Shown here piece after piece: positions 29,080 through 55,105 of a stretch of DNA of 64,000 nt. The DNA comes from a virus. Taxonomy: Duplodnaviria > Caudoviricetes. Under the pieces are notes generated by a model that worked only from the letters and a program-made list of their open reading frames with translations, ran no database searches and was not told the origin of the DNA. Both the position numbers and the translations under genes were made by a program. How positions within the stretch are numbered: the first letter of the stretch is position 1; every line of letters begins with the position of its first letter. The stretch spans positions 1 to 64,000 of the IMG/VR virus record IMGVR_UViG_2903468256_000002. One strand, given 5' to 3'.

Positions 29080-31329
29080 ATGGTAGACATGATCACAATC
29101 GAAGACGCAAGTGACGAATTGCTCCTCTTCGGCGGTCAACTTGGTGACAACATCCTCAAGATTGAGGCTATTGGCCCCAAGGGCGACGATGGCGACAAGG
29201 GCGACAAGGGCGACACCGGTAAGCAGTTGATATATGTAACTGGAGCCCCGGCGACCAACGTTGGTAATGTCGGCGACTTTGCCATCAGAAACACCGGGGA
29301 TGTCTACGAAAAAACGGCGGCAAATGTCTGGACGCTGCGCTTCAATATAAAGGGTCCGCAGGGCGACCAAGGCATCCCTGGCCCTGGGGACATGAACGCA
29401 GCTGAATACGACAGCAACAACGACGGCAAGGTCAACGCGGCGGATGTCGCTGATAGCGCGCCGTGGGACGGTATCACGGACAAGCCGGCAGCGTTCCCGC
29501 CGGAGACCCACATCCACGCTGACGCGACCGAGACCGACCCCGGCTTCATGTCGGCCGCCGACAAGACAAAGCTCGACGGCGTCAGTGCTGGCGCCACGGC
29601 AAACGCGACCGATGCCGAGCTGCGCGACCGCTCGACGCACACGGGCACCCAGAGCGCGGATACCCTGACCGATGGCGCCACCAACAAGGCATTCTTGGCC
29701 GCCGAGCGCACGAAGCTGGCAGGTATCGCCGCCGGTGCAACGGCCAATCAGACCGACGCCTATCTGCTTTCGCGCGCCAATCATACGGGAACGCAGGGGC
29801 AGAACACCGTAACCAATCTCACGACCGATCTCGCCGCCAGGCAGCTGACCTCCGAAAAGGGCCAGGCCGGCGGTTATGCCGGTCTCGACGGCACCGGCAA
29901 GGTTCCGGCCGCGCAGATGCCGTCCTATGTCGACGATGTGCTTGAATACGCAAACCTTGCTGCCTTCCCTGGCACTGGCGAAGCGGCCAAGATCTATGTG
30001 GCGCTCGACACCAATAAGACCCATCGCTGGTCGGGATCGGCCTATGTCGAGATCTCCGCATCGCCCGGTTCCACGGACGCGGTGACGGAAGGCGCTACCA
30101 ATCTGTATTTCACGGCGGCCCGTGTTCGCTCTACGCTGCTGACCAGCCTCTCGCTGCTGACGAGCACCGCGGTCATCGCCACCGACACGGTGCTCGATGC
30201 GATTGGCAAGCTTCAGGCTCAGATCACCGGCCTGGTGGCCTCTGCTATTGGCTTCACGCCGGCAAATGGAATTGGTTCGACCAATGTGCAGGCCGCCATC
30301 GCCGAGATCGCACGCAATAACCGCAACTATCTGATCAACAGCAACGGTGCGATCAACCAGCGCGGTGTTATATCGGCGAACGATGATACCTACGCCTGGG
30401 ACCGGCATTACGTTCTGACCCAAACGGGAGCGGTTGGAACTGGCTTTATAGTCGATCCGACCCCTGGCGTTCTGTGCATGATGCGCCAAACACAAGCACA
30501 GGTAGCCGCGCAACGCATGGGCATTGCCCAGATTGTCGAAAGCATCAATTGCCGAGATCTGCAAAGCAGCGTCGTCACGCTGCTGGGCAAGCTGCGTTGT
30601 TCCTCGTCGCAGGCAATTCGATATGCGGTCCTTGAATGGACCGGAGCTCGTGACGTTGTGACCTCCGATGTCGTGAATTCCTGGACAAACGGCACCTTCA
30701 CCGCCGGTCAGTTCTTCACCTCGACCACGCTCAACGTGCTTGCAGTTGGCTCGACTACGCCTACCGTGGCGACCGTTACGGACTTCGCTCTTCAGGCGAC
30801 TGTTGGAGCGTCCGCCAACAACCTGATCGTGATGATCTGGACCGAAGGCACGGCAGCGCAGGGCGTAACGCTCGACGTAGCCTGGGAGCTGGTCGACGGC
30901 ACTCGGGATGCTTCTGCCTATCCGCTTGATCAGCGAACCATCCAAGACGAAGTAACGCTCTGTCAGCGTTACTATTGCAAAAGTTTTCCCCTTAATACAG
31001 CTCCAGTCGAAGGAGTTGCCTCATCGTGGATCGCAGGATTTGCGTGGTCAGCAGCAGCCATCGGGACGCAGACAATTAGTTTTCCTGTATCGATGATCGG
31101 CATTCCGACAATAACCTTTTTTAAGCCAGCTCAGATCACCGGAACAAACAGCAAGTGGCAATGGTTCGATAGCGGACTGGGCAGCTACCAAGACAGTTCC
31201 GCGACGATTGTTTCCAGTGGCGCAATACAAAGTAACGCCAGCTTTTCTGCCAACCTTACGGTGGCGGGTGCGACGGCGAAAGGCGGCTACATTGTGCAAG
31301 GCAATTGGACTGCGGAGGCCGAACTGTGA
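29080..31329 (+). CDS. Fibre protein with collagen-like repeats and a C-terminal carbohydrate-binding-like domain
   Basis: GPKGDDGDKGDKGDTG, GPQGDQGIPGPG; YVDDVLEY..FP.TGE..KIYVA motif; NYLINS...CQRYY domain. Confidence 0.8.
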   Translation: MVDMITIEDASDELLLFGGQLGDNILKIEAIGPKGDDGDKGDKGDTGKQLIYVTGAPATNVGNVGDFAIRNTGDVYEKTAANVWTLRFNIKGPQGDQGIPGPGDMNAAEYDSNNDGKVNAADVADSAPWDGITDKPAAFPPETHIHADATETDPGFMSAADKTKLDGVSAGATANATDAELRDRSTHTGTQSADTLTDGATNKAFLAAERTKLAGIAAGATANQTDAYLLSRANHTGTQGQNTVTNLTTDLAARQLTSEKGQAGGYAGLDGTGKVPAAQMPSYVDDVLEYANLAAFPGTGEAAKIYVALDTNKTHRWSGSAYVEISASPGSTDAVTEGATNLYFTAARVRSTLLTSLSLLTSTAVIATDTVLDAIGKLQAQITGLVASAIGFTPANGIGSTNVQAAIAEIARNNRNYLINSNGAINQRGVISANDDTYAWDRHYVLTQTGAVGTGFIVDPTPGVLCMMRQTQAQVAAQRMGIAQIVESINCRDLQSSVVTLLGKLRCSSSQAIRYAVLEWTGARDVVTSDVVNSWTNGTFTAGQFFTSTTLNVLAVGSTTPTVATVTDFALQATVGASANNLIVMIWTEGTAAQGVTLDVAWELVDGTRDASAYPLDQRTIQDEVTLCQRYYCKSFPLNTAPVEGVASSWIAGFAWSAAAIGTQTISFPVSMIGIPTITFFKPAQITGTNSKWQWFDSGLGSYQDSSATIVSSGAIQSNASFSANLTVAGATAKGGYIVQGNWTAEAEL

Positions 31330-47160: not shown

Positions 47161-48189
47161 ATGCGACCAAACCAAGAGAAGATGATCGAAGCGTTCAGCA
47201 AGGCAGGCGGGTTCCGTCCAGCCGAGCGAATGCTGCGCAGCATGGGCTTCGACATCTCCGAGCGGACGCTACGGCGCGCGCTGGCCAACATGCCTTCAGC
47301 GACCGACGAGCCCTTCACGGTTGACGACGGCCCCGAGATCGACATCCAGGAACTGCTGGAGCGCCGGATAAAGGTCTTCGAGAAGAAGAACAAGCAGCGC
47401 GAGCACGACAAGCTGATCCCGGTCAGGATCAACATCGACGGCCCGGTCGGTCTCGGCTTCATGGGTGACCCACACATCGACAGCGACGGCTGCAACATCA
47501 AGCTGCTGCTCGAACACACCGAGATCTTCGACGGTCGCAACGAGGGCATGTTCGGCGCCTGTCTGGGCGACATGTGGAACAACTGGTCCGGCCGCCTCGC
47601 GCGCCTGTGGTCTGAGCAAACCACCGATGGCTCCGAAGCCCGCGCGCTGGTCGAATATTTCCTGAGCCGCGTTAACTGGATGTTCGTGATCTATGGCAAC
47701 CACGACCTGTGGTCTGGTCACTCGAAGATCCTCGACCAGATGCTGGCCGGCAACGCGGGCGCTGCCCGTGACTGGCGCGCACGCGTTGGCCTCCGGTTCC
47801 CCAATGGCCGCACGGCGAAGATATACGGCGCGCACGGCTTCCCCGGCAATTCGATGTACCTGAAGAACTTCGGCGCCGTGAAAAAGGCTCTCTTCGACGG
47901 CCAGCACGACATCTACGTCTCAGGCCACATCCATTCGGCCGGCTACACGCTTGGCGCGCACCCGGGCGCCGAACGCGCCTTCCACGCGGTCCAGGTCGGC
48001 ACCTACAAGGAGATCGACAGCTTCGGCGATGCGATCGGTGCGGAGAACCTCAATCTCTACACCTGTCCGGTCGCGCTGATCGACCCGTATGCCACGTCGC
48101 CCCTCAATTTCATCCGCTGGGAGTTCGATCCCGAGCAGGCAGTCGATCGTCTCGCGTGGATGCGGAAGCGTTGGTCTGAGGCTCGGTAA
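47161..48189 (+). CDS. Calcineurin-like metallophosphoesterase with N-terminal HTH
   Basis: MGDPHID, LGDMWNN, YGNHD, AHG, GHIH motifs. Confidence 0.85.
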   Translation: MRPNQEKMIEAFSKAGGFRPAERMLRSMGFDISERTLRRALANMPSATDEPFTVDDGPEIDIQELLERRIKVFEKKNKQREHDKLIPVRINIDGPVGLGFMGDPHIDSDGCNIKLLLEHTEIFDGRNEGMFGACLGDMWNNWSGRLARLWSEQTTDGSEARALVEYFLSRVNWMFVIYGNHDLWSGHSKILDQMLAGNAGAARDWRARVGLRFPNGRTAKIYGAHGFPGNSMYLKNFGAVKKALFDGQHDIYVSGHIHSAGYTLGAHPGAERAFHAVQVGTYKEIDSFGDAIGAENLNLYTCPVALIDPYATSPLNFIRWEFDPEQAVDRLAWMRKRWSEAR

Positions 48190-51100
48190 TGCAGAAGTTC
48201 GCCGGTAGTGGTTTCGGTAGCAGCGGGGGCAGCAATGACCCCGACAGCTATTTCAGCGATGATATCGTTGAATTGGTGCTGGCCATCTCTGAGGGTCAGA
48301 TCAAGGGGCTGAAGGACGGCACGGCCAAGAACTTCTACATCGGCGAAACTCCTCTTCTCAACGCCAACGGGGTGTCGAACTTTTCGGATTTCGAGCTCGA
48401 CGTAAACGTGGGTTCGCCCCAGGGTGAGCTCATCGTCTTGTCCCTGGGTGGTCAGGCCACCAGCACGACCGTCAGCAGCTCCCTGGCCCAATTCGTACCG
48501 GTCGTGCGTCAGGGCTCCCAAGTCGACATCGACTGGCTCGAGTTGCGTCTGGTCATCAATCAGCTCCTCCGCACGAATGATGATGGCGTTCGGGCGCGCG
48601 AACTTGATCTGCAGATCGAGATCAAGCCCTCCGACAGCAACACCTGGATCAGCCCTGTCCTTTATGCCGAGGTTGGAACGACGGTCGAGGCGTACGAGAA
48701 CAGCCTCAAAGTTGTCCATCGCAACGACATCCAATCAGCCGCGATCGCCGGTCGGACGCAGGTCGTGTATAACCAGGAGGCCGAACCGAACCCGACCTCC
48801 GTCGAGCGCGGCCTCGGCGCGGCTTACGGCAATCGCGTGTGGTGGATCGACACCGCCGGCGGTCAGTTCAATCCGAAGTTCTACTCGGACCAGGAGTTCT
48901 TCCTTCCTGACGGTCTTGTGCTGGACACCACGCCAGGCAAGCAGGTAGCCACGTTTGAGGACGCGAACTACATCGCGCTGGTCGACCCCTACCGGTCGGA
49001 TATCACGCGCAAGATCTATTTCTGGGCGTCCGGCACGCCTGGCACCGCCCGTTTGGGCGATCTCTGGTACACTCCGGCCTCCGGTCGCCTCCTGTGGTTC
49101 AACGGCGCCGCCTGGGTCGCTACGCTGGCCCCGCAAGGGACGTACGACCCCACCGCTGGCAACAACGTCATCTCCACGAACGGCCAGCTCCACATCTTTG
49201 AGAAGATCACCTCCAACGCTGTGAAGGAAGTGCGGATCAAGGTCGATCGGATCGGCGTTCCCTACGACATACGGATTACCAAGCAGACGACGGACAGCAG
49301 CGACCTCGAAGACGATCGCACCGACGTCTCCTGGGAGAGTTTCCAGGAGGTGAAGGCCGAGCCGATGCTGTTCCCCAATCTGGCGACCGTTCGCCTGAAG
49401 GGCCGTGCCAGCGATCAGTTCTCCAGCCTGCCGGAATTCCAGGGTGTCTACGAGGGCCGTCTGATCAAGGTCCCCTCGAACTACGACCCCGTGACCCGCA
49501 CCTTCGCCGGCCTTTGGGACGGCACCTGGAAGGTCGCCTACAGCAACAACCCGGCCTTCATCGGTTACGACCTGGTCGAGAACGACCGGTACGGCATGAG
49601 CGCTACCTATCCTGTCACGCTGGAGCCGTTCGACGTCTACGAGGCGGGGGTGTGGTGCGACCGCCGGCTCCCCACTGGCAAACCCCAGTTCACCTTCAAC
49701 AGCCTCATCAAGGAGGCCCAGTCGCCGCGGGAGCTGGCGACCTACGTCTTCGGCGTGTTCGGCGGCCGGTTCTTCGACGACGGCAATGGCTATGGGCGCC
49801 TGCGCATCGACAATGACGCTCCTGCTGTCCACCTGTTCACCAAGGAGAACGTCAAGAGCGGCACCTTCAAATACTCCTATACGGAGATTGAGAGCCGCAT
49901 CAACGACTACACGGTCTCCTTCAAGAACCCCGCGCTGTTTTATGCAGAAGACCGGCGCAGGGTTTACGACCAGCCGGCGATTGACACCTATGGCCGCGCG
50001 CCGGATGACTTTGTCGCCGTGGGTTGCAACAGCGCTGACGAGGCGGTCTATCGAGCCACCGTCAAGCTGCTGACCGACCAGACCGAGGTGGAAACAGTCA
50101 CCTTCGAAACCGCCCGCGAAGGTCTCTATCTCGAGCCCTACGAAATCATCCTGGTCGCCGACGACACGATGGACGAGATCATCACCGGCCGTATCGCCGG
50201 TACCGATGGTCCCCGCCTCATCTATCTGCGCGACAACGTCTACCTGGAAGACGGTTTCGACTATGAGATCGTCATCAACCTGAACCAATTCGAGCTCGCC
50301 ACGCTCTCGATCGACGTGATGTCCGTTGGCAGGGCCACGAAGATCCTCCAACTGGCCGAGGATCTTCCGCAGGGCATCCCGGATCAGGCCGTCTTCTCGA
50401 TTGGCTCGAACGCCAAACCGTATCGCGTGCTCGCCATTGGAGAGGGCAGCGATGGTGAGGACGGCGAGAACGTCACCATCAGTGCGCTTGAGGTGAACCG
50501 GACGAAATATGCCGACGCCGCCGATGCCCCTGGAACGGTCGTCATCGACGTTCCGCAATTCCCTACTGACCTCTCCGCGGTCTCCAACGCGCGCATCACT
50601 CCTTGGACCGAGGTCCGCAATGGTCGCCCGGTCCAGAACCTGCGTGTTGAGTGGGACCCCCATCCGAACAAATGGGTGCGGACATATTCGATCAACTCCC
50701 GCTTCAATGACGACCAGTGGCAGTTCAACGGCGAGGTGAAGAACCCACGTTTCGAACTCTTCGACGTCAAGCAGGGGCGCTACATCTTCTCGATCCAGGC
50801 ACTCGCCATGACAGGGCAGAAGTCTGTGGTCGCCTACGCAGACATCGACCTGAGCGGCGAGGTCCGCACGGTCGCCCCAGTCAAGAACCTGACCCTGGTC
50901 AACGAGACGGGCGTCGATGGGGCCCTGCATCTCTTCGACGACGTGCATGCCGATCTGCAATGGGAGCCGGGAGAGAGTGATCCTGCACTCGCCACCTATG
51001 GCGTGAAGCTGTTCAGCGACAGCGAGGAGCTTTTGCGATCAGCATCCGTTGGCGTGCCGGAGTTCACCTACACCACCGCGATGATGCGGAACGACGGTGG

Positions 51101-53126
51101 CCACCGTCAGGTGCGGGTGGAGATCACAGCCTACGATTTGTTTGGCAACCACTCGGTGCCCGTCTCGATGCTGATCAAGAACCCAGCCCCGGCGGCGCCC
51201 CTGGTCGCGGCCGACCGCGGCTTCGGTTCGGTTTCCTTCTCGTGGCCGATCTCTGGTCTCATTGACTATGTCGGCGCTCTGGTTTGGATCTCCGACCAGC
51301 CTGGGATAGTCCCTACCGCGCTCCCGCCCGACATGGATATCAACAGCAACACAGTGTCGGTGGCCGTAGAGAGCCAGGGCGTCTGCTACGCGGTGATCGC
51401 GCTCTACGACACGATGGGCAAGACCGAGCTGAATTACAGCCAGGAGGTCTTCGCCCAGTCCTACCAGACCGTGGATACGGAGCCGCCGGAAACCCCGACA
51501 GGGCTTGGACTGTCCTCGCGGATCGAGACGGTCGATGGCGTTGTGCAACGGATGATCCTGACGGCAGGCCTGGGCGCGGCGGTCGATGATGACTTTGCCT
51601 ATTTCGATTTCGAGCTCAAGCAGAACAACGGCAACTGGGTCAGCTTCACCTCCAGCACGCCGACGTTCGAATGGACCGTGCTCCCCCTGCAAACCTACAC
51701 GGTTCGTGCCTCGTCGGTCGACCAGTTCGGCAACCGCTCTGGTCATACTGCCGACCAGGCTTTGCTGACGCCTGAGTGCCCTGAGCTCGCCGACCTGATT
51801 AATTCCGGCTTGGGCGAGATCGAGGCGAACAAGATCCGGGTCTTCGGCGACACTATGGTGTCTGACTGGCGCAACCCTGGCGATCTGACCACGATCAACG
51901 GCGGGGCGGTGGGCACCGGCACGCTCACGGCCGACAAGGGCATCTTCGGCCAGCGCGGACTCCAGGTCGAGGACATCATCTTCGATTACAACAGCCCGAG
52001 CATCAACAAGGTCTCTTGGACTGCCGGCGTCGTGCGCTACACGGGCGACGACGGGAACACGGCCACGCGCAACATCGCAGCCGGCAGTGCCACCTGGACG
52101 ACCGGCACGCTCTTCATCTGCTACACGAAGGACGCCACGGAGCTCACCGCCACCACCAACCCGCTGGCGGCCTTCGATCACGACGCAATCGTCGTGGCGA
52201 CCTACAAGGGCGACAAGGCCCTGGACGGAAGCTATGGGCGCACGATCATCGACGGCGGGCAGCTGAAGACCGGGACGGTCATTGCCGACCAGGCACGGCT
52301 CAACTCGATCGACAGCGATGCCATCCAGTCGGACGCTGTGAAAGCTCGGCACATCGCCGCGGGCGAGATCACGGCCGATCACATCCAGGTCGGCACCGGC
52401 GGCAACTGGCTCGACAACGCCGATCTTAGCGCCGGTGTGACCAACTGGGTCCTGACTCGCACCGACACAGGCGTAACGGGTGCCATTCGCACCGATAGCC
52501 TTGCGCCAATCGGTGGCGCTCTGCAGATATACACCGGCGCCGCCGCCGGCGCGGCCGACTATGGATATTACATGGCGACCGGTGCATCCGGGGCGCTTAG
52601 ATACTTTCCGGTCATCGCTGGCCAGAAGTATCAGTTCTCGGTCTACACCTACTCTCTCCGAACCCAGAACTTCGGGATGATCCGCTTCTTAAATGCGGCT
52701 GGTGCTGCCCTCTTGGACAGTCCTCTGCCCAAGTTTGGTCCTGATGTTCTGGATCCCGGCTTCAACCTTGGCAACTATCATCGTCCGTTTGTCATCGCCA
52801 CCGCTCCTGCCGGCGCGGTCAAGGCGGTGATAATTATGGGATCGGATCCCAGAAGCTCCGGCACCGACTGCTATTGCTGGTTCGCGCGCCCGTTCTTTGG
52901 CGAGGCCCTTCCCCACCAGACCCAACCGTCGCCATGGAGCGTCGGCGGTGCGACCAAGATCGGCCCCGGCACGATCGAGACGGTCTCGCTGGCGGCAATC
53001 TCCGCGGTTCTTGGATCTGTCGACATCAGTGACGCCAATATTGGCACACTGCAGGTGGGTAGCGCCAACATCGCCAATCTCGCCGTCACCTCGACGAAGA
53101 CGCAGTCCCTCGAGGTGACCAGATGA
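48189..53126 (+). CDS. Central tail fibre / tip attachment protein (lambda gpJ-like)
   Basis: ISEGQIKGL, YSNNPAFIGYDL, FN3-like repeats, C-terminal beta-helix repeats. Confidence 0.9.
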   Translation: MQKFAGSGFGSSGGSNDPDSYFSDDIVELVLAISEGQIKGLKDGTAKNFYIGETPLLNANGVSNFSDFELDVNVGSPQGELIVLSLGGQATSTTVSSSLAQFVPVVRQGSQVDIDWLELRLVINQLLRTNDDGVRARELDLQIEIKPSDSNTWISPVLYAEVGTTVEAYENSLKVVHRNDIQSAAIAGRTQVVYNQEAEPNPTSVERGLGAAYGNRVWWIDTAGGQFNPKFYSDQEFFLPDGLVLDTTPGKQVATFEDANYIALVDPYRSDITRKIYFWASGTPGTARLGDLWYTPASGRLLWFNGAAWVATLAPQGTYDPTAGNNVISTNGQLHIFEKITSNAVKEVRIKVDRIGVPYDIRITKQTTDSSDLEDDRTDVSWESFQEVKAEPMLFPNLATVRLKGRASDQFSSLPEFQGVYEGRLIKVPSNYDPVTRTFAGLWDGTWKVAYSNNPAFIGYDLVENDRYGMSATYPVTLEPFDVYEAGVWCDRRLPTGKPQFTFNSLIKEAQSPRELATYVFGVFGGRFFDDGNGYGRLRIDNDAPAVHLFTKENVKSGTFKYSYTEIESRINDYTVSFKNPALFYAEDRRRVYDQPAIDTYGRAPDDFVAVGCNSADEAVYRATVKLLTDQTEVETVTFETAREGLYLEPYEIILVADDTMDEIITGRIAGTDGPRLIYLRDNVYLEDGFDYEIVINLNQFELATLSIDVMSVGRATKILQLAEDLPQGIPDQAVFSIGSNAKPYRVLAIGEGSDGEDGENVTISALEVNRTKYADAADAPGTVVIDVPQFPTDLSAVSNARITPWTEVRNGRPVQNLRVEWDPHPNKWVRTYSINSRFNDDQWQFNGEVKNPRFELFDVKQGRYIFSIQALAMTGQKSVVAYADIDLSGEVRTVAPVKNLTLVNETGVDGALHLFDDVHADLQWEPGESDPALATYGVKLFSDSEELLRSASVGVPEFTYTTAMMRNDGGHRQVRVEITAYDLFGNHSVPVSMLIKNPAPAAPLVAADRGFGSVSFSWPISGLIDYVGALVWISDQPGIVPTALPPDMDINSNTVSVAVESQGVCYAVIALYDTMGKTELNYSQEVFAQSYQTVDTEPPETPTGLGLSSRIETVDGVVQRMILTAGLGAAVDDDFAYFDFELKQNNGNWVSFTSSTPTFEWTVLPLQTYTVRASSVDQFGNRSGHTADQALLTPECPELADLINSGLGEIEANKIRVFGDTMVSDWRNPGDLTTINGGAVGTGTLTADKGIFGQRGLQVEDIIFDYNSPSINKVSWTAGVVRYTGDDGNTATRNIAAGSATWTTGTLFICYTKDATELTATTNPLAAFDHDAIVVATYKGDKALDGSYGRTIIDGGQLKTGTVIADQARLNSIDSDAIQSDAVKARHIAAGEITADHIQVGTGGNWLDNADLSAGVTNWVLTRTDTGVTGAIRTDSLAPIGGALQIYTGAAAGAADYGYYMATGASGALRYFPVIAGQKYQFSVYTYSLRTQNFGMIRFLNAAGAALLDSPLPKFGPDVLDPGFNLGNYHRPFVIATAPAGAVKAVIIMGSDPRSSGTDCYCWFARPFFGEALPHQTQPSPWSVGGATKIGPGTIETVSLAAISAVLGSVDISDANIGTLQVGSANIANLAVTSTKTQSLEVTR

Positions 53127-54070
53127 CGGCGATCAACGTCTTGGTCGGCTACAGCGAGACGCACCTGTTCGCCGACACCGGCCATTATAACCAAGCGACG
53201 AAGAAGCTCGACCACCTGGCGCCGAAGGTTTTTCCGCTCCCGAACCATCAAGCCTTGCTGGCATGGTCCGGGCCGTCCGCGTTCGGGCCTGTGCTGGCGG
53301 AACTGTGCCGGGGCTCGCCCGAACCACTCATGATTGCCTTGCCGCGGATGATCGCCGGCCTCGGCATCCTGGCCAAATTCTCCGCCATCGTGGTCGGCGC
53401 CGGCTGGGGCATCGCGGTCGAGGAAGGCGGCAAGGTCCATCACCTTGCTCCTGGTTCCGTGGTCCGATCGATCACGGCCGAAAACCAACTCGATCCCAGT
53501 GACCTGCGGGGATCTGGCGTCCGCCTCATGGAGGAGCAGCGCCAATCATCGGGCGTGGTGTTCGGCGAGTGTCAATACTGGCACCTCACGTCCCAGCAAT
53601 GCACGATGCAAGTCCTGCATGACTGGCGCGATCGGCCATCGCTAATCAGGGGAGCTTTGTCGACCGCGGCCAAAATTGCCAATCTTACGGTAGACAAGCT
53701 CAATGTCGCACCCAATGCCGTCACCAAGATTGCCACAGGCACGACAACGATCACCTCGGGCGGTGACGGCAGTTACCCCAACATCATCTGGATCATAATC
53801 AACTGCGTGTATCACGGCACGCGGGTCGACTCCTCCGGAGTGCTCAATGTTTTCACCAAACGTTCGCCCAGCAATGAAGTAGTTGGCGGTAGCTCAAAGG
53901 GCTTTAGTGGTAATGGAGATCAGCCGGCGATCGTCAAAGTAAATGCGGTCGATGTAGGTATGGCGGCAAACCAGCAGTATTCGATTTCTACAAACTTTAA
54001 CTTTTCCGGATCGAATGCCACTTGCACGATCAACTCGATCACCACCGAACTGTTTTACACGGTGAAGTGA
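53123..54070 (+). CDS. Fusion of an Ntn-hydrolase (proteasome-beta-like) domain and a J-type receptor-binding cassette
   Basis: N-terminal MTAIN...HLFADT, APKV, WSG; then AKIANLTVDKL + beta-sandwich. Confidence 0.5.
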   Translation: MTAINVLVGYSETHLFADTGHYNQATKKLDHLAPKVFPLPNHQALLAWSGPSAFGPVLAELCRGSPEPLMIALPRMIAGLGILAKFSAIVVGAGWGIAVEEGGKVHHLAPGSVVRSITAENQLDPSDLRGSGVRLMEEQRQSSGVVFGECQYWHLTSQQCTMQVLHDWRDRPSLIRGALSTAAKIANLTVDKLNVAPNAVTKIATGTTTITSGGDGSYPNIIWIIINCVYHGTRVDSSGVLNVFTKRSPSNEVVGGSSKGFSGNGDQPAIVKVNAVDVGMAANQQYSISTNFNFSGSNATCTINSITTELFYTVK

Positions 54071-54071
54071 G

Positions 54072-54506
54072 ATGGCGAAGATCGCAAACCTCGATGTCGA
54101 TACCATCAAGATCGGCAATGCCGCGCTGACTGGTGCTGGCCAGTCGAGTTTTTCCTATTTCCCGTCGACCGTGAATGCATCTATTCCGATATCGAACCCG
54201 AGTGGCAACCCGATAACCCTCTATTGGAACGCCAATGGGACATGCGCCAGTGGTGCGTCTTCCAGCCGAGACCGCACGGCATCGGTGACTTTTTCCGTCA
54301 TGCGTGGCGCTACGACGTTCTATAGCAATAGCGTAGTAAGAACGGCCATCGGGGATACTGGTGTGCAGCTGGCATGGAGTGGCGCGGTCTACGATCCCAC
54401 CCCCGGAACATCTCCTGTCTACTCCACAACAGGTGCGGCCGGTTCGACCTCTCCGGGTGTCGCGACTCTGACCGGAATGCTCATGGCCGTGTATTTCAAG
54501 AAGTAG
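54072..54506 (+). CDS. J-type C-terminal cassette protein 2
   Basis: Starts MAKIANLDVDTIKIG; Ser/Thr/Gly beta-rich; ends LMAVYFKK. Confidence 0.65.
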   Translation: MAKIANLDVDTIKIGNAALTGAGQSSFSYFPSTVNASIPISNPSGNPITLYWNANGTCASGASSSRDRTASVTFSVMRGATTFYSNSVVRTAIGDTGVQLAWSGAVYDPTPGTSPVYSTTGAAGSTSPGVATLTGMLMAVYFKK

Positions 54507-54512
54507 GGGACC

Positions 54513-54848
54513 ATGGCCAAGATCGCCGATCTGAACGTCACCACAATCACCATCAAGGATGGTTCGATCACGCAGTTCTGCGCGCCCTATAGCGGCGCCC
54601 TGGGCACTAACCGCTATATCAACGTGGTCTTCGACGCCTATTCCACGCCAGCGCTGATCTTCGCCAGGACGACGGCAGGAACAGCAAATCTCTACTACGA
54701 TCTTGGTGGACCCAACCAGGAGCTGATTTTCTCATTCGTCGACAACAAATGCGGCGTGGTGGGAGACTCCCGTCCAGCCGGGACGGCGGTCTACGCGCTA
54801 TCTGGCGGTACGGGGACGATCACTGGTGCGCTCATGAGGTATCGATGA
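54513..54848 (+). CDS. J-type C-terminal cassette protein 3
   Basis: Starts MAKIADLNVTTITIKDG; ends GALMRYR. Confidence 0.65.
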   Translation: MAKIADLNVTTITIKDGSITQFCAPYSGALGTNRYINVVFDAYSTPALIFARTTAGTANLYYDLGGPNQELIFSFVDNKCGVVGDSRPAGTAVYALSGGTGTITGALMRYR

Positions 54849-55105
54849 TGACCTATCGGATCACTTATACAAGCGGCATCGAAGTCGATGTCGAGGCGTC
54901 TCGCATCGAGGACGACGGCATCTCAACCAAACTGTTTCGCGATGACGGCTCGGTGGCGCTTTGGGTCACCGATTGCGAAATAGTTTGCTGCGCGCCGGTC
55001 GGTGATTTTGCACCTGATGTATTCGACGTTGGGGAGACGCAGCAAGGCGTCGTCCTGTTGAACGAAGCCGGTGAGGTGCTCGCCGCTTACCGAAATTATC
55101 AATGA
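54845..55105 (+). CDS. Hypothetical acidic protein
   Basis: ATGA-coupled 86 aa. Confidence 0.6.
   Translation: MMTYRITYTSGIEVDVEASRIEDDGISTKLFRDDGSVALWVTDCEIVCCAPVGDFAPDVFDVGETQQGVVLLNEAGEVLAAYRNYQ

Follow-up and report, generated by a model that had tools for sequence, protein, structure and literature searches.

A predicted proteasome-like N-terminal threonine hydrolase domain joined to a TNF-like knob directly behind the tail-tip gene J of a Mesorhizobium-type prophage

The DNA analysed here (the window) comprises 64,000 nucleotides, positions 1 to 64,000 of the IMG/VR record IMGVR_UViG_2903468256_000002, and stems from a Mesorhizobium-type prophage. Its tail-tip gene J (48189..53126, + strand) encodes a central tail fibre/tip attachment protein of 1645 aa, which was recognized by phrog_31 (central tail fiber J, E 3.4e-124) and by the Pfam families FNIII-A_GpJ and Phage-tail_3. 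Directly 3' of J, on the same strand, lies an open reading frame of 315 aa (53123..54070), which begins M-T-A-I-N-V-L and whose ATG shares the tetranucleotide ATGA with the TGA of J, i.e., the two genes overlap by 4 nt. Its product combines a predicted enzyme domain of proteasome-like type (N-terminal threonine), whose catalytic residues are intact, with a TNF-like receptor-binding knob. It comprises a proteasome-beta-like Ntn domain (residues 1–174, 53123..53644; delimited by AF2, Foldseek, VIA and conservation), a flexible linker with an AKIANL neck (residues 175–199, 53645..53719; delimited by pLDDT and hhalign), and a TNF/C1q-like jelly-roll knob, here also termed cassette 1 (residues 200–315 and the stop codon, 53720..54070; VIA and BFVD). 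Two further genes follow on the + strand: cassette 2 (54072..54506, 144 aa, starting with M-A-K-I-A-N-L; hhalign and alignment A4), which is paralogous to the Ntn protein's knob module, and cassette 3 (54513..54848, 111 aa, starting with M-A-K-I-A-D-L; alignment A5), a shorter paralogue.

The initial annotation had described an open reading frame after J with the elements M-T-A-I-N, HLFADT, APKV, WSG and AKIANL, and all of these are present in 53123..54070, the last four at residues 14–19, 33–36, 48–50 and from 183 onwards, respectively. It had put about 180 aa ahead of AKIANL; the Ntn core itself stops near residue 174, not 180. The suggestion that the domain was fused into the tail-tip protein J had to be abandoned: the domain is encoded by a separate, translationally coupled gene and is fused to a cassette of the downstream type. 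A fusion with J by frameshifting was considered and rejected, since the Ntn reading frame contains a stop 30 codons upstream and all homologues begin with M-T-A. This stop is located at 53030–53032, and from there to 53123 neither ATG, GTG nor TTG occurs; a propeptide ahead of Thr2 is therefore impossible.

Modelling of residues 1–174 with AF2 (pLDDT 96, pTM 0.91) yielded a domain resembling a proteasome beta subunit, with the four-layer alpha-beta-beta-alpha Ntn fold of the proteasome-subunit type. A Foldseek search of the PDB produced at least 500 matches at E<=0.001, and all matches listed were 20S proteasome chains. Comparison by VIA gave a Z-score of 18.5 for 20S beta (rmsd 2.4 A, 164 residues), 15.9 for Anbu, 14.6 for HslV and 13.0 for BPH, and several amidases of the Ntn superfamily matched at Z 8–11; in the VIA superpositions Thr2 of the model coincides with the first residue of mature beta, of HslV, of Anbu and of BPH. 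The predicted structure thus agrees with the fold of proteasome-beta/HslV/Anbu type that had been proposed from the sequence. The model contains two helices between strands 5 and 6 (residues 54–64 and 69–80) and no helix after the last hairpin, i.e., the last flanking helix is missing. No match to Pfam PF00227 was obtained for the Ntn protein at E<=0.1, or across the whole provirus. The provirus likewise encodes no AAA+ partner (HslU-like, AAA_2 domain), and an HslU-like partner was therefore ruled out. Single subunits of proteasome type usually show no activity when not assembled into rings, which is a point against a peptidase. The working form of the Ntn domain described here is probably monomeric or a small oligomer and not a ring, because propeptide, AAA+ partner and last flanking helix are all missing; the missing helix together with the fusion to a knob of trimeric type would disfavour rings.

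From the specificity of methionine aminopeptidase, which removes Met before Thr and thus exposes Thr as residue 1, the Ntn protein would be expected to begin with Thr2 (codon 53126–53128) in its mature form. Position 2 is occupied by Thr (34) or Ser (8) in 42 relatives, both near and distant, Ser being the sole substitute, which is what would be expected of the nucleophile after Met that had been postulated; A3, D18, K35 and G50 are identical in all 42. Across 12 homologues M-T-A-I-N, H14, D18, K35 and G50 are unchanged, and the pattern is therefore not a chance likeness. A profile-profile alignment (E 1.7e-5, probability 55–62%) places D18 (codon 53174–53176) and K35 (codon 53225–53227) in register with D17 and K33 of HslV, and G50 opposite the second Gly of HslV; the Lys predicted near position 33 is thus the invariant K35. 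As judged from this alignment, the equivalents of Asp17 and Lys33 complete the triad. Gly45 of HslV, which corresponds to Gly47 of the proteasome (oxyanion hole), aligns with Ala47, and A, T, V, I or S are found in the relatives. The equivalent of Ser129 is doubtful; the sequence GSG at 130–132, which bears on this point, lies within helix 3 of the model, and distant relatives have not kept it. The replacement of Gly47 by Ala, Thr or Val and the doubtful Ser129 are features that count against a peptidase.

The same two features would suit a non-catalytic assembly chaperone or structural domain, in which the Ntn fold would aid trimerisation of the knob or decorate the tip, and chaperones of fibres are commonly encoded beside fibre genes. 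Such a role appears very unlikely, since the restriction of position 2 to Thr or Ser and the invariance of Asp18 and Lys35, at about 25–35% identity, argue for a retained nucleophile triad, whereas inactive proteasome alpha-type subunits lose the residues of this triad. With high probability the N-terminal 174 residues belong to the proteasome-like branch of the Ntn hydrolases and are competent for catalysis.

Residues 175–199 are disordered in the full-length model (pLDDT <60). Within this segment A183 is aligned with the second residue of the free cassettes (hhalign, A3 versus A4), every one of which begins exactly with M-A-K/N-I. The disordered linker and the correspondence of residue 183 are in favour of a peptidase; a flexible linker of 25 residues would let the fused protein work uncut, which is a point against it. 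The knob is homologous to both small downstream proteins: residues 183–315 of the Ntn protein family matched cassette 2 with an hhalign probability of 99.7% (E 8e-26), and the A2 profile matched the orthologous cassette 3 in Aliihoeflea (E 1.4e-5). A ten-strand jelly roll of TNF type was found for residues 199–315, with moderate Z-scores and with the domain not folded alone. Matches by VIA were the TNF-like lectin PLTL (Z 10.1, rmsd 2.3, 106 residues), the needle of phage Pan3 (Z 9.4), and TNF, EDA, lymphotoxin and BAFF (Z 8.5–8.8); those in BFVD were tail fibre and C1q-domain phage proteins. With the trimeric TNF/C1q-like knobs it shares the jelly roll (Z 8.5–10.1, 100–106 residues) and the position at the end of a fibre-repeat neck, and the presence of three paralogous cassettes recalls heterotrimeric C1q or lymphotoxin; it differs by having no sequence similarity to any named family. 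ESM features gave a hint of PF12421 (score 0.87–0.88). Sequence homology of the knob to the receptor-binding domain of lambda J was rejected, because hhalign against the C-terminus of lambda J gave a probability of 0.2%.

The last 20 residues of J (53064..53123, + strand; A-N-I-A-N-L-A-V-T-S-T-K...) form a conserved tail, as seen from aligned J C-termini of 7 loci; T-S is invariant, and the tail opens with the repeat unit that is common to the cassettes. J stops about 20 residues past a similar A-x-I-A-N-x-x-V/I unit. Several copies of the AKIANL-like motif are present further upstream in J, where it is the repeat unit of the fibre. The J tail keeps I-T-S-x-K at the place of the V-D-T-I-x-I that is kept in the cassettes. 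At the DNA level the motif is encoded by a repeat (D1) of 17 nt, which is imperfect (76–88% identity) and has all its copies on one strand. Switching of cassettes at the DNA level was considered and rejected, because this repeat, the only common DNA, is too short and too imperfect for homologous recombination.

The order J, Ntn (with the 4-nt overlap) and three cassettes, the fused one counted, was present at every locus checked. These were the window, L002, L006, L008, L009, L010, L011 and three JGI contigs with one common protein, a small sample of about 8 independent loci, at each of which the Ntn gene overlaps by 4 nt with the end of a J-like gene for 865–1670 aa. The Ntn domain occurs as a fusion with the first cassette or else as a separate protein, and fused and split forms have switched at least 2 times on the family tree. 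Stand-alone forms, which account for about a quarter to a third of the family clusters, have 160–187 aa and end right past the Ntn core, without a tether. A strong match to cassette 3 was found in 1 of 401 genomes of the order, the sole genome with a post-J Ntn gene, and borderline matches in two others (E 3.5e-4 and 7.2e-4); the NCBI databases contain only about 5 members of the post-J family, and a pattern scan revealed two loci only in viral contigs and zero relatives in genome contigs. When 50,697 phage genomes were searched by tblastn with the Ntn domain and with each of the two cassettes, zero matches were obtained, and nothing was found by Pfam and PHROG scans of the Ntn protein and both cassettes or by a profile search of PDB sequences; a word-indexed wider profile search reached no other families. 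Neither Pfam nor PHROG nor any phage-genome record has a name for the Ntn family.

From fold, catalytic residues, synteny, the pattern of fusion and splitting, and the homology of the cassettes we infer an enzymatic activity, its substrates and the occurrence of cleavage: the Ntn domain may be a dedicated tail-tip maturation peptidase, which would act at the junction of J and the cassettes. We would put the probability of this at roughly 45%. Owing to translational coupling the enzyme would be made in step with J and could act in the cytoplasm, between the C-terminal fibre repeats of J and the three TNF-like receptor-binding cassettes. The fused form would cut its own flexible linker just ahead of A-K-I, which would give cassette 1 an N-terminus equal to that of cassettes 2 and 3 after removal of Met; the conserved I-T-S-T-K tail of J would possibly be trimmed too, and the trimeric knob or knobs could afterwards dock onto J.

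The fused form could also be thought of as remaining uncut in the tail tip, with the knob binding a glycan or protein of the cell surface and the Ntn domain, displayed on the virion, cleaving an amide bond in a component of the host envelope, thereby providing access to a receptor or to the membrane. Phage depolymerases typically combine an enzyme with a binding domain at the tail tip, TNF-like lectins are among the structures that resemble the knob (Z 10.1, as given above), the Ntn superfamily includes amidases with non-peptide substrates, and a relative with Ser2 (P0035) at the end of a tail module is also fused to a large C-terminal domain. We nevertheless consider a displayed enzyme unlikely. 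The stand-alone forms have no tether, and this favours an enzyme acting during assembly over one anchored in the virion; the nearest structures are true proteasome beta subunits, not acylases; and the enzyme is N-terminal, beside the neck that is expected to face J, and not distal.

A different chemistry at the same junction would be that of a transpeptidase resembling connectase, which is a monomeric proteasome homologue ligating R1-(motif) to (motif)-R2, with both substrates carrying the same sequence C-terminal to the scissile bond and the free N-terminus of R2 arising by removal of Met (PMC7980362). Such an enzyme would join one of three alternative TNF-like knobs covalently to each J chain: Thr1 would attack J before its terminal A-x-I-A-N repeat, freeing a tail of about 20 residues, and an A-K-I cassette would then accept the acyl group of J at its free N-terminal Ala. 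The M-A-K/N-I cassettes superficially resemble connectase substrates in layout (a free N-terminus after Met removal and a common motif), J carries a similar unit about 20 residues from its end and comes to an end at the point at which a distal knob, attached covalently, would normally be expected, and the gene for the enzyme is located exactly between donor and acceptors. However, the common unit is the repeating fibre motif of J, whose several upstream copies leave no unique site, and it is therefore weaker as a specific recognition site of a ligase; the J tail and the cassettes, differing in I-T-S-x-K versus V-D-T-I-x-I, are therefore not equivalent ligands; and for the fused form the acyl donor would have to be the enzyme. 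The likeness to connectase, which is archaeal and methanogen-specific, consists of a proteasome-like Ntn core with N-terminal Thr/Ser and a superficially repeated donor/acceptor layout, whereas in structure connectase (Z 9.8–10.1; 9.8 over 128 residues) is a far weaker match than 20S beta (Z 18.5). The model keeps H1/H2, helices that are missing from connectase, which carries a two-helix insertion of its own (Hins1/Hins2), and the connectase motif KDPGA is absent from J and the cassettes. Ligation thus appears quite unlikely. If it did occur, the specificity of the tail tip would be assembled post-translationally from a set of cassettes, as a parallel at the protein level to tail-fibre genes that are invertible or diversity-generating, and the enzyme would be the first bacterial or viral one of connectase type and a new route to receptor-binding tips.

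Coupling of the Ntn gene to J would also fit a counter-defence peptidase, which strips off a ubiquitin-like protein that had been conjugated to the central tail fibre by a host system of Bil type. Apart from the usual K/I tail genes, Pfam and PHROG scans of the locus brought up nothing connected with ubiquitin-like conjugation, and the strict tie to three cassettes as well as the fusion to one of them would be left unexplained. To our knowledge, no proteasome-type Ntn enzyme acts as a deconjugase, and this role must be regarded as extremely improbable.

For a maturation peptidase, an analogy in function only is provided by the Peptidase S74 chaperones of fibres and spikes, which are fibre-embedded proteases that release themselves after trimerisation. 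S74 is C-terminal, with a Ser-Lys dyad and an unrelated fold, whereas the Ntn domain is N-terminal; self-release is a feature of S74 and for the Ntn protein a proposal only. With 20S beta, HslV, BPH and Anbu the domain has in common the alpha-beta-beta-alpha core and a nucleophilic Thr at the mature N-terminus, exposed in HslV by removal of Met, as would be expected here. It differs by its shorter length (174 aa), the lack of a PF00227 match, Ala in place of Gly47, the fusion to a TNF-like knob and its location inside a tail-tip module.

Fuchs, Alva and Lupas (2021, PMC8665760) described PPH, RPC and DPH as group I proteasome homologues restricted to phages and proteobacteria; these are small, propeptide-less, phage-associated and proteobacterial, and small size, absence of a propeptide and association with phages are shared by the domain described here. 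RPC (79 catalogued sequences) has a C-terminal extension of unknown fold, and Mesorhizobium is among the hosts mentioned (PMC8665760). RPC and PPH were described as being without helix H2 (PMC8665760), whereas our model places two helices, 54–64 and 69–80, between strands 5 and 6, a comparison that is based on the published description only; in addition, the post-J family has only about 5 members in NCBI, versus 79 for RPC. The RPC/PPH representatives are WP_140207863 and WP_042125023; the members of the post-J family carry other accessions, and the family may still cluster with either group. The phage proteasome homologues were catalogued in 2021 without a function, and no genomic context suggestive of one was reported for group I (PMC8665760). 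The post-J subfamily has a strict context, namely, coupling to J, three TNF-like knob genes and repeated fusion to the first knob. This makes the role of a lone proteasome-like subunit directly testable at the tail tip, with the tail of J, the linker and the N-termini of the cassettes as named candidate substrates. If the enzyme is a maturation protease, it would represent a new class of tail-assembly enzymes and might bear on the long-unexplained processing of tail proteins in other siphoviruses.

More distant relatives matched the A2 profile with E-values from 1e-5 to 3e-28. These Ser1/Thr1 proteasome-like proteins of alphaproteobacterial prophages and satellites share the M-S/T-A start, H14, D18, K35, G50, R140 and W168, and start at, or at most 4 nt from, the end of a large tail gene. 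They differ in length (205–250 aa), with a short C-terminal extension and no knob, and are found beside TMP, TerL or head genes instead of J, with no cassette array following. Distant relatives sit straight behind large tail genes, 4 of 10 after the tape measure gene, and were found in head-module contexts too (L014, L016 and L034); the family is therefore not tied to one substrate.

The window covers most of an 80.7-kb provirus with a late region of the siphovirus type, in which terminase, portal, major head and tail proteins, tape measure, L-, K- and I-like tip genes, a metallophosphoesterase and the central tail fibre gene J (48189–53126) follow each other. The ORF directly after J (53123–54070, + strand, 315 aa), whose ATG overlaps the J stop codon as ATGA, contained upon translation all residues quoted in the initial annotation, where a proteasome-like Ntn hydrolase with a threonine nucleophile was proposed. 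A stop codon is located in frame 30 codons upstream of the ATG, with no start codon between; thus, the N-terminus M-T-A-I-N is fixed and a propeptide is impossible. Neither an HslU-like AAA+ protein nor a canonical proteasome-family gene is encoded in the provirus. Between the tail genes I and J, an unusual position for an enzyme gene, lies the gene for the calcineurin-like metallophosphoesterase (47161–48189, +; 342 aa), which matched phrog_7339 ("DNA repair exonuclease") with E 1.6e-30 and Pfam Metallophos weakly. A 749-aa protein encoded between portal and head genes (29080–31329, +), with PHROG matches to tail-fibre, minor-tail, head-decoration and peptidase families, looks like a fibre-like protein inside the head module.

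The Ntn protein was recognised by neither Pfam nor PHROGs, and its family profile had no match among PDB sequences. Residues 1–182 were modelled with AlphaFold2 from a 32-sequence alignment (mean pLDDT 96.0, pTM 0.91). Foldseek yielded at least 500 PDB matches at E ≤ 0.001; those listed were 20S proteasome chains throughout, the top one among them having an E value of 2.7e-7 and a TM score of about 0.7. An independent all-against-all structural search gave a Z score of 18.5 for a 20S beta subunit (rmsd 2.4 Å, 164 residues), followed by Anbu (15.9), HslV (14.6), BPH (13.0) and connectase (9.8), with acylases and ceramidases below these proteins. The structural reading in the initial annotation is therefore right: the predicted fold is that of a proteasome-like Ntn protein. 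No helix follows the last hairpin of the domain. Since residue 2 of the model aligned with chain residue 1 of mature human beta5i, HslV, Anbu, BPH and connectase, Thr2 is at the nucleophile position.

T2, A3, I4, N5, H14, D18, K35 and G50 did not vary among the 12 closest homologues. When the set was extended to 42 sequences, including ten distant relatives from other genomes of the order Hyphomicrobiales, A3, D18, K35 and G50 were present in all 42, and position 2 was occupied by Thr (34/42) or Ser (8/42) and nothing else, so that the proposed nucleophile was conserved with serine as its sole replacement. Profile-profile comparison with 25 alphaproteobacterial HslV sequences was weak but significant (E 1.7e-5, probability 55–62%) and aligned T2, D18 and K35 with T1, D17 and K33 of HslV, in agreement with a single-sequence version. 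Some caveats attach to the active site: where the oxyanion Gly47 would be expected, the family has Ala or a different small residue, and the counterpart of Ser129 is ambiguous. The identification of the N-terminal domain as a genuine Ntn enzyme that has kept its triad is well supported; it is predicted to be active.

An exhaustive phmmer search of residues 1–182 against 1.84 billion cluster representatives found relatives in only 29 clusters, about 20 of them two-domain proteins (315–332 aa) and eight stand-alone forms (160–187 aa), whose chain ends directly behind the N-terminal domain. Named members were from Mesorhizobium, Aliihoeflea and one Rhodobiaceae MAG, all annotated as hypothetical; tblastn of 50,697 genomes of sequenced isolated phages detected none with the domain. 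Phage and proteobacterial proteasome homologues, including the groups PPH, RPC and DPH, were catalogued by Fuchs, Alva and Lupas, who assigned to RPC a C-terminal extension whose fold they gave as unknown and reported that gene neighbourhoods offered no hint of a function (PMC8665760). The feature itself is strongly supported, and the post-J family, compared with RPC by description only, is a new, context-rich form of a known, functionally blank enzyme family, for which candidate substrates are now explicit.

The full-length model is disordered at residues 175–199, a segment with the A-K-I-A-N-L neck in it, and shows, at residues 200–315, a confident all-beta domain. The latter matched the TNF-like lectin PLTL (Z 10.1, rmsd 2.3 Å, 106 residues), a cyanophage needle protein, TNF, EDA, lymphotoxin and BAFF, and, in a viral structure library, phage proteins of the tail-fibre, collagen-like and C1q-domain kinds; we therefore assign it to the TNF/C1q-type knobs, whose fold normally occurs as a trimer. 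Kinship with the receptor-binding domain of lambda J, hinted at by a language model, was not confirmed by sequence. Two small proteins encoded downstream (144 and 111 aa) are paralogues of this knob module (hhalign probability 99.7%, E 8e-26), and the alignment pairs residue 183 of the Ntn protein with free-cassette residue 2. The start of an 86-aa ORF (54845–55105, +) overlaps the stop codon of the last cassette as ATGA; this ORF, which has no family assignment, is conserved behind the cassettes of locus L006 (7745–8005) and may belong to the same module.

The module was compared in the window, six independent loci with DNA (L002, L006, L008, L009, L010, L011) and three JGI contigs with one common protein, of which the DNA was read for the short L001 only. 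At every locus the Ntn gene has a 4-nt overlap with the end of a J-like gene (865–1670 aa), in tail modules which otherwise differ (K/I-type, NlpC/P60-type or DUF6950-type). Two free cassettes come after each fused form and three after each stand-alone form, which makes three cassettes in every case. A rapidly computed maximum-likelihood tree for the Ntn domain requires five changes between the fused and split states, at least two of which are forced by well-supported branches; the fusion is thus a Rosetta-stone link that has recurred. Only one of 401 genomes of the order had the post-J type, and this genome also gave the only strong match to cassette 3; two others gave borderline cassette-3 matches. 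Exchange of cassettes at the DNA level is unlikely, since only a 17-nt imperfect repeat is shared. Where the J gene is short, the array and one to three tiny ORFs are followed by a separate gene that is side-fibre-like (L002 5758–7161; L009 9033–9875; L010 9269–10180; L011 8930–10162); it is not of the same family at each locus (Peptidase_S74 or Gp53-like_C, with no Pfam family on record for L010 and L011). In the window's prophage the lysis genes come next, without such a gene.

We infer that the enzyme functions in the tail-tip module. The best reading would be an assembly enzyme working at the junction of J and the cassettes, as suggested by strict coupling to the J gene, by repeated fusion to a cassette via a disordered linker and by the stand-alone forms, which carry no tether; it also fits that residue 183 corresponds to the first residue of the free cassettes. 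All free cassettes start with M-A-(K/N)-I-x-x-L-x-V-x-T-I-x-I and end with aromatic-x-K/R-K/R, and all J proteins share the C-terminal tail (A/T)-x-I-x-x-x-x-(I/V)-T-S-x-K-x-x-x-L-x-V, the first part of which is the repeat unit common to the cassette starts. A ligase acting there is attractive: in connectase, the single proteasome homologue with known protein ligase activity, donor and acceptor substrates carry a shared motif, and Met removal exposes the acceptor N-terminus (PMC7980362). This alternative is weakened, however, because the common motif is J's generic repeat, with several more copies further upstream in J, because the residues conserved after it differ between J tail and cassette necks, and because the structure is far nearer to 20S beta than to connectase. 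For an assembly enzyme the simplest chemistry would be hydrolysis, i.e., self-release from the fused cassette and/or trimming of the J tail. The fused forms could possibly serve as virion-borne surface enzymes; a role in counter-defence against Bil, which conjugates a ubiquitin-like protein to the central tail fibre, found no support here.

More distant Ser1/Thr1 relatives (205–250 aa), all annotated as hypothetical by NCBI, were present in seven further genomes of the 401. Four are encoded directly behind a tape-measure gene, starting at or within 4 nt of its end (L017, L018, L023 and L024, from Devosia, Aliihoeflea, Bradyrhizobium and other Hyphomicrobiales genomes), and one behind a large terminase gene; the tape measure of L018 contains a VanY peptidase domain. 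One genome of Bradyrhizobium daqingense (G042) carries three copies within about 65 kb. In an 11-kb element with integrase and AlpA, represented by the circularly permuted contigs L032 and L033, a proteasome-like domain with Ser2 is joined to a different C-terminal domain of 270 aa (L032 6304–7644), and this gene closes the tail module after the tape measure and Tail_completion_gp17.
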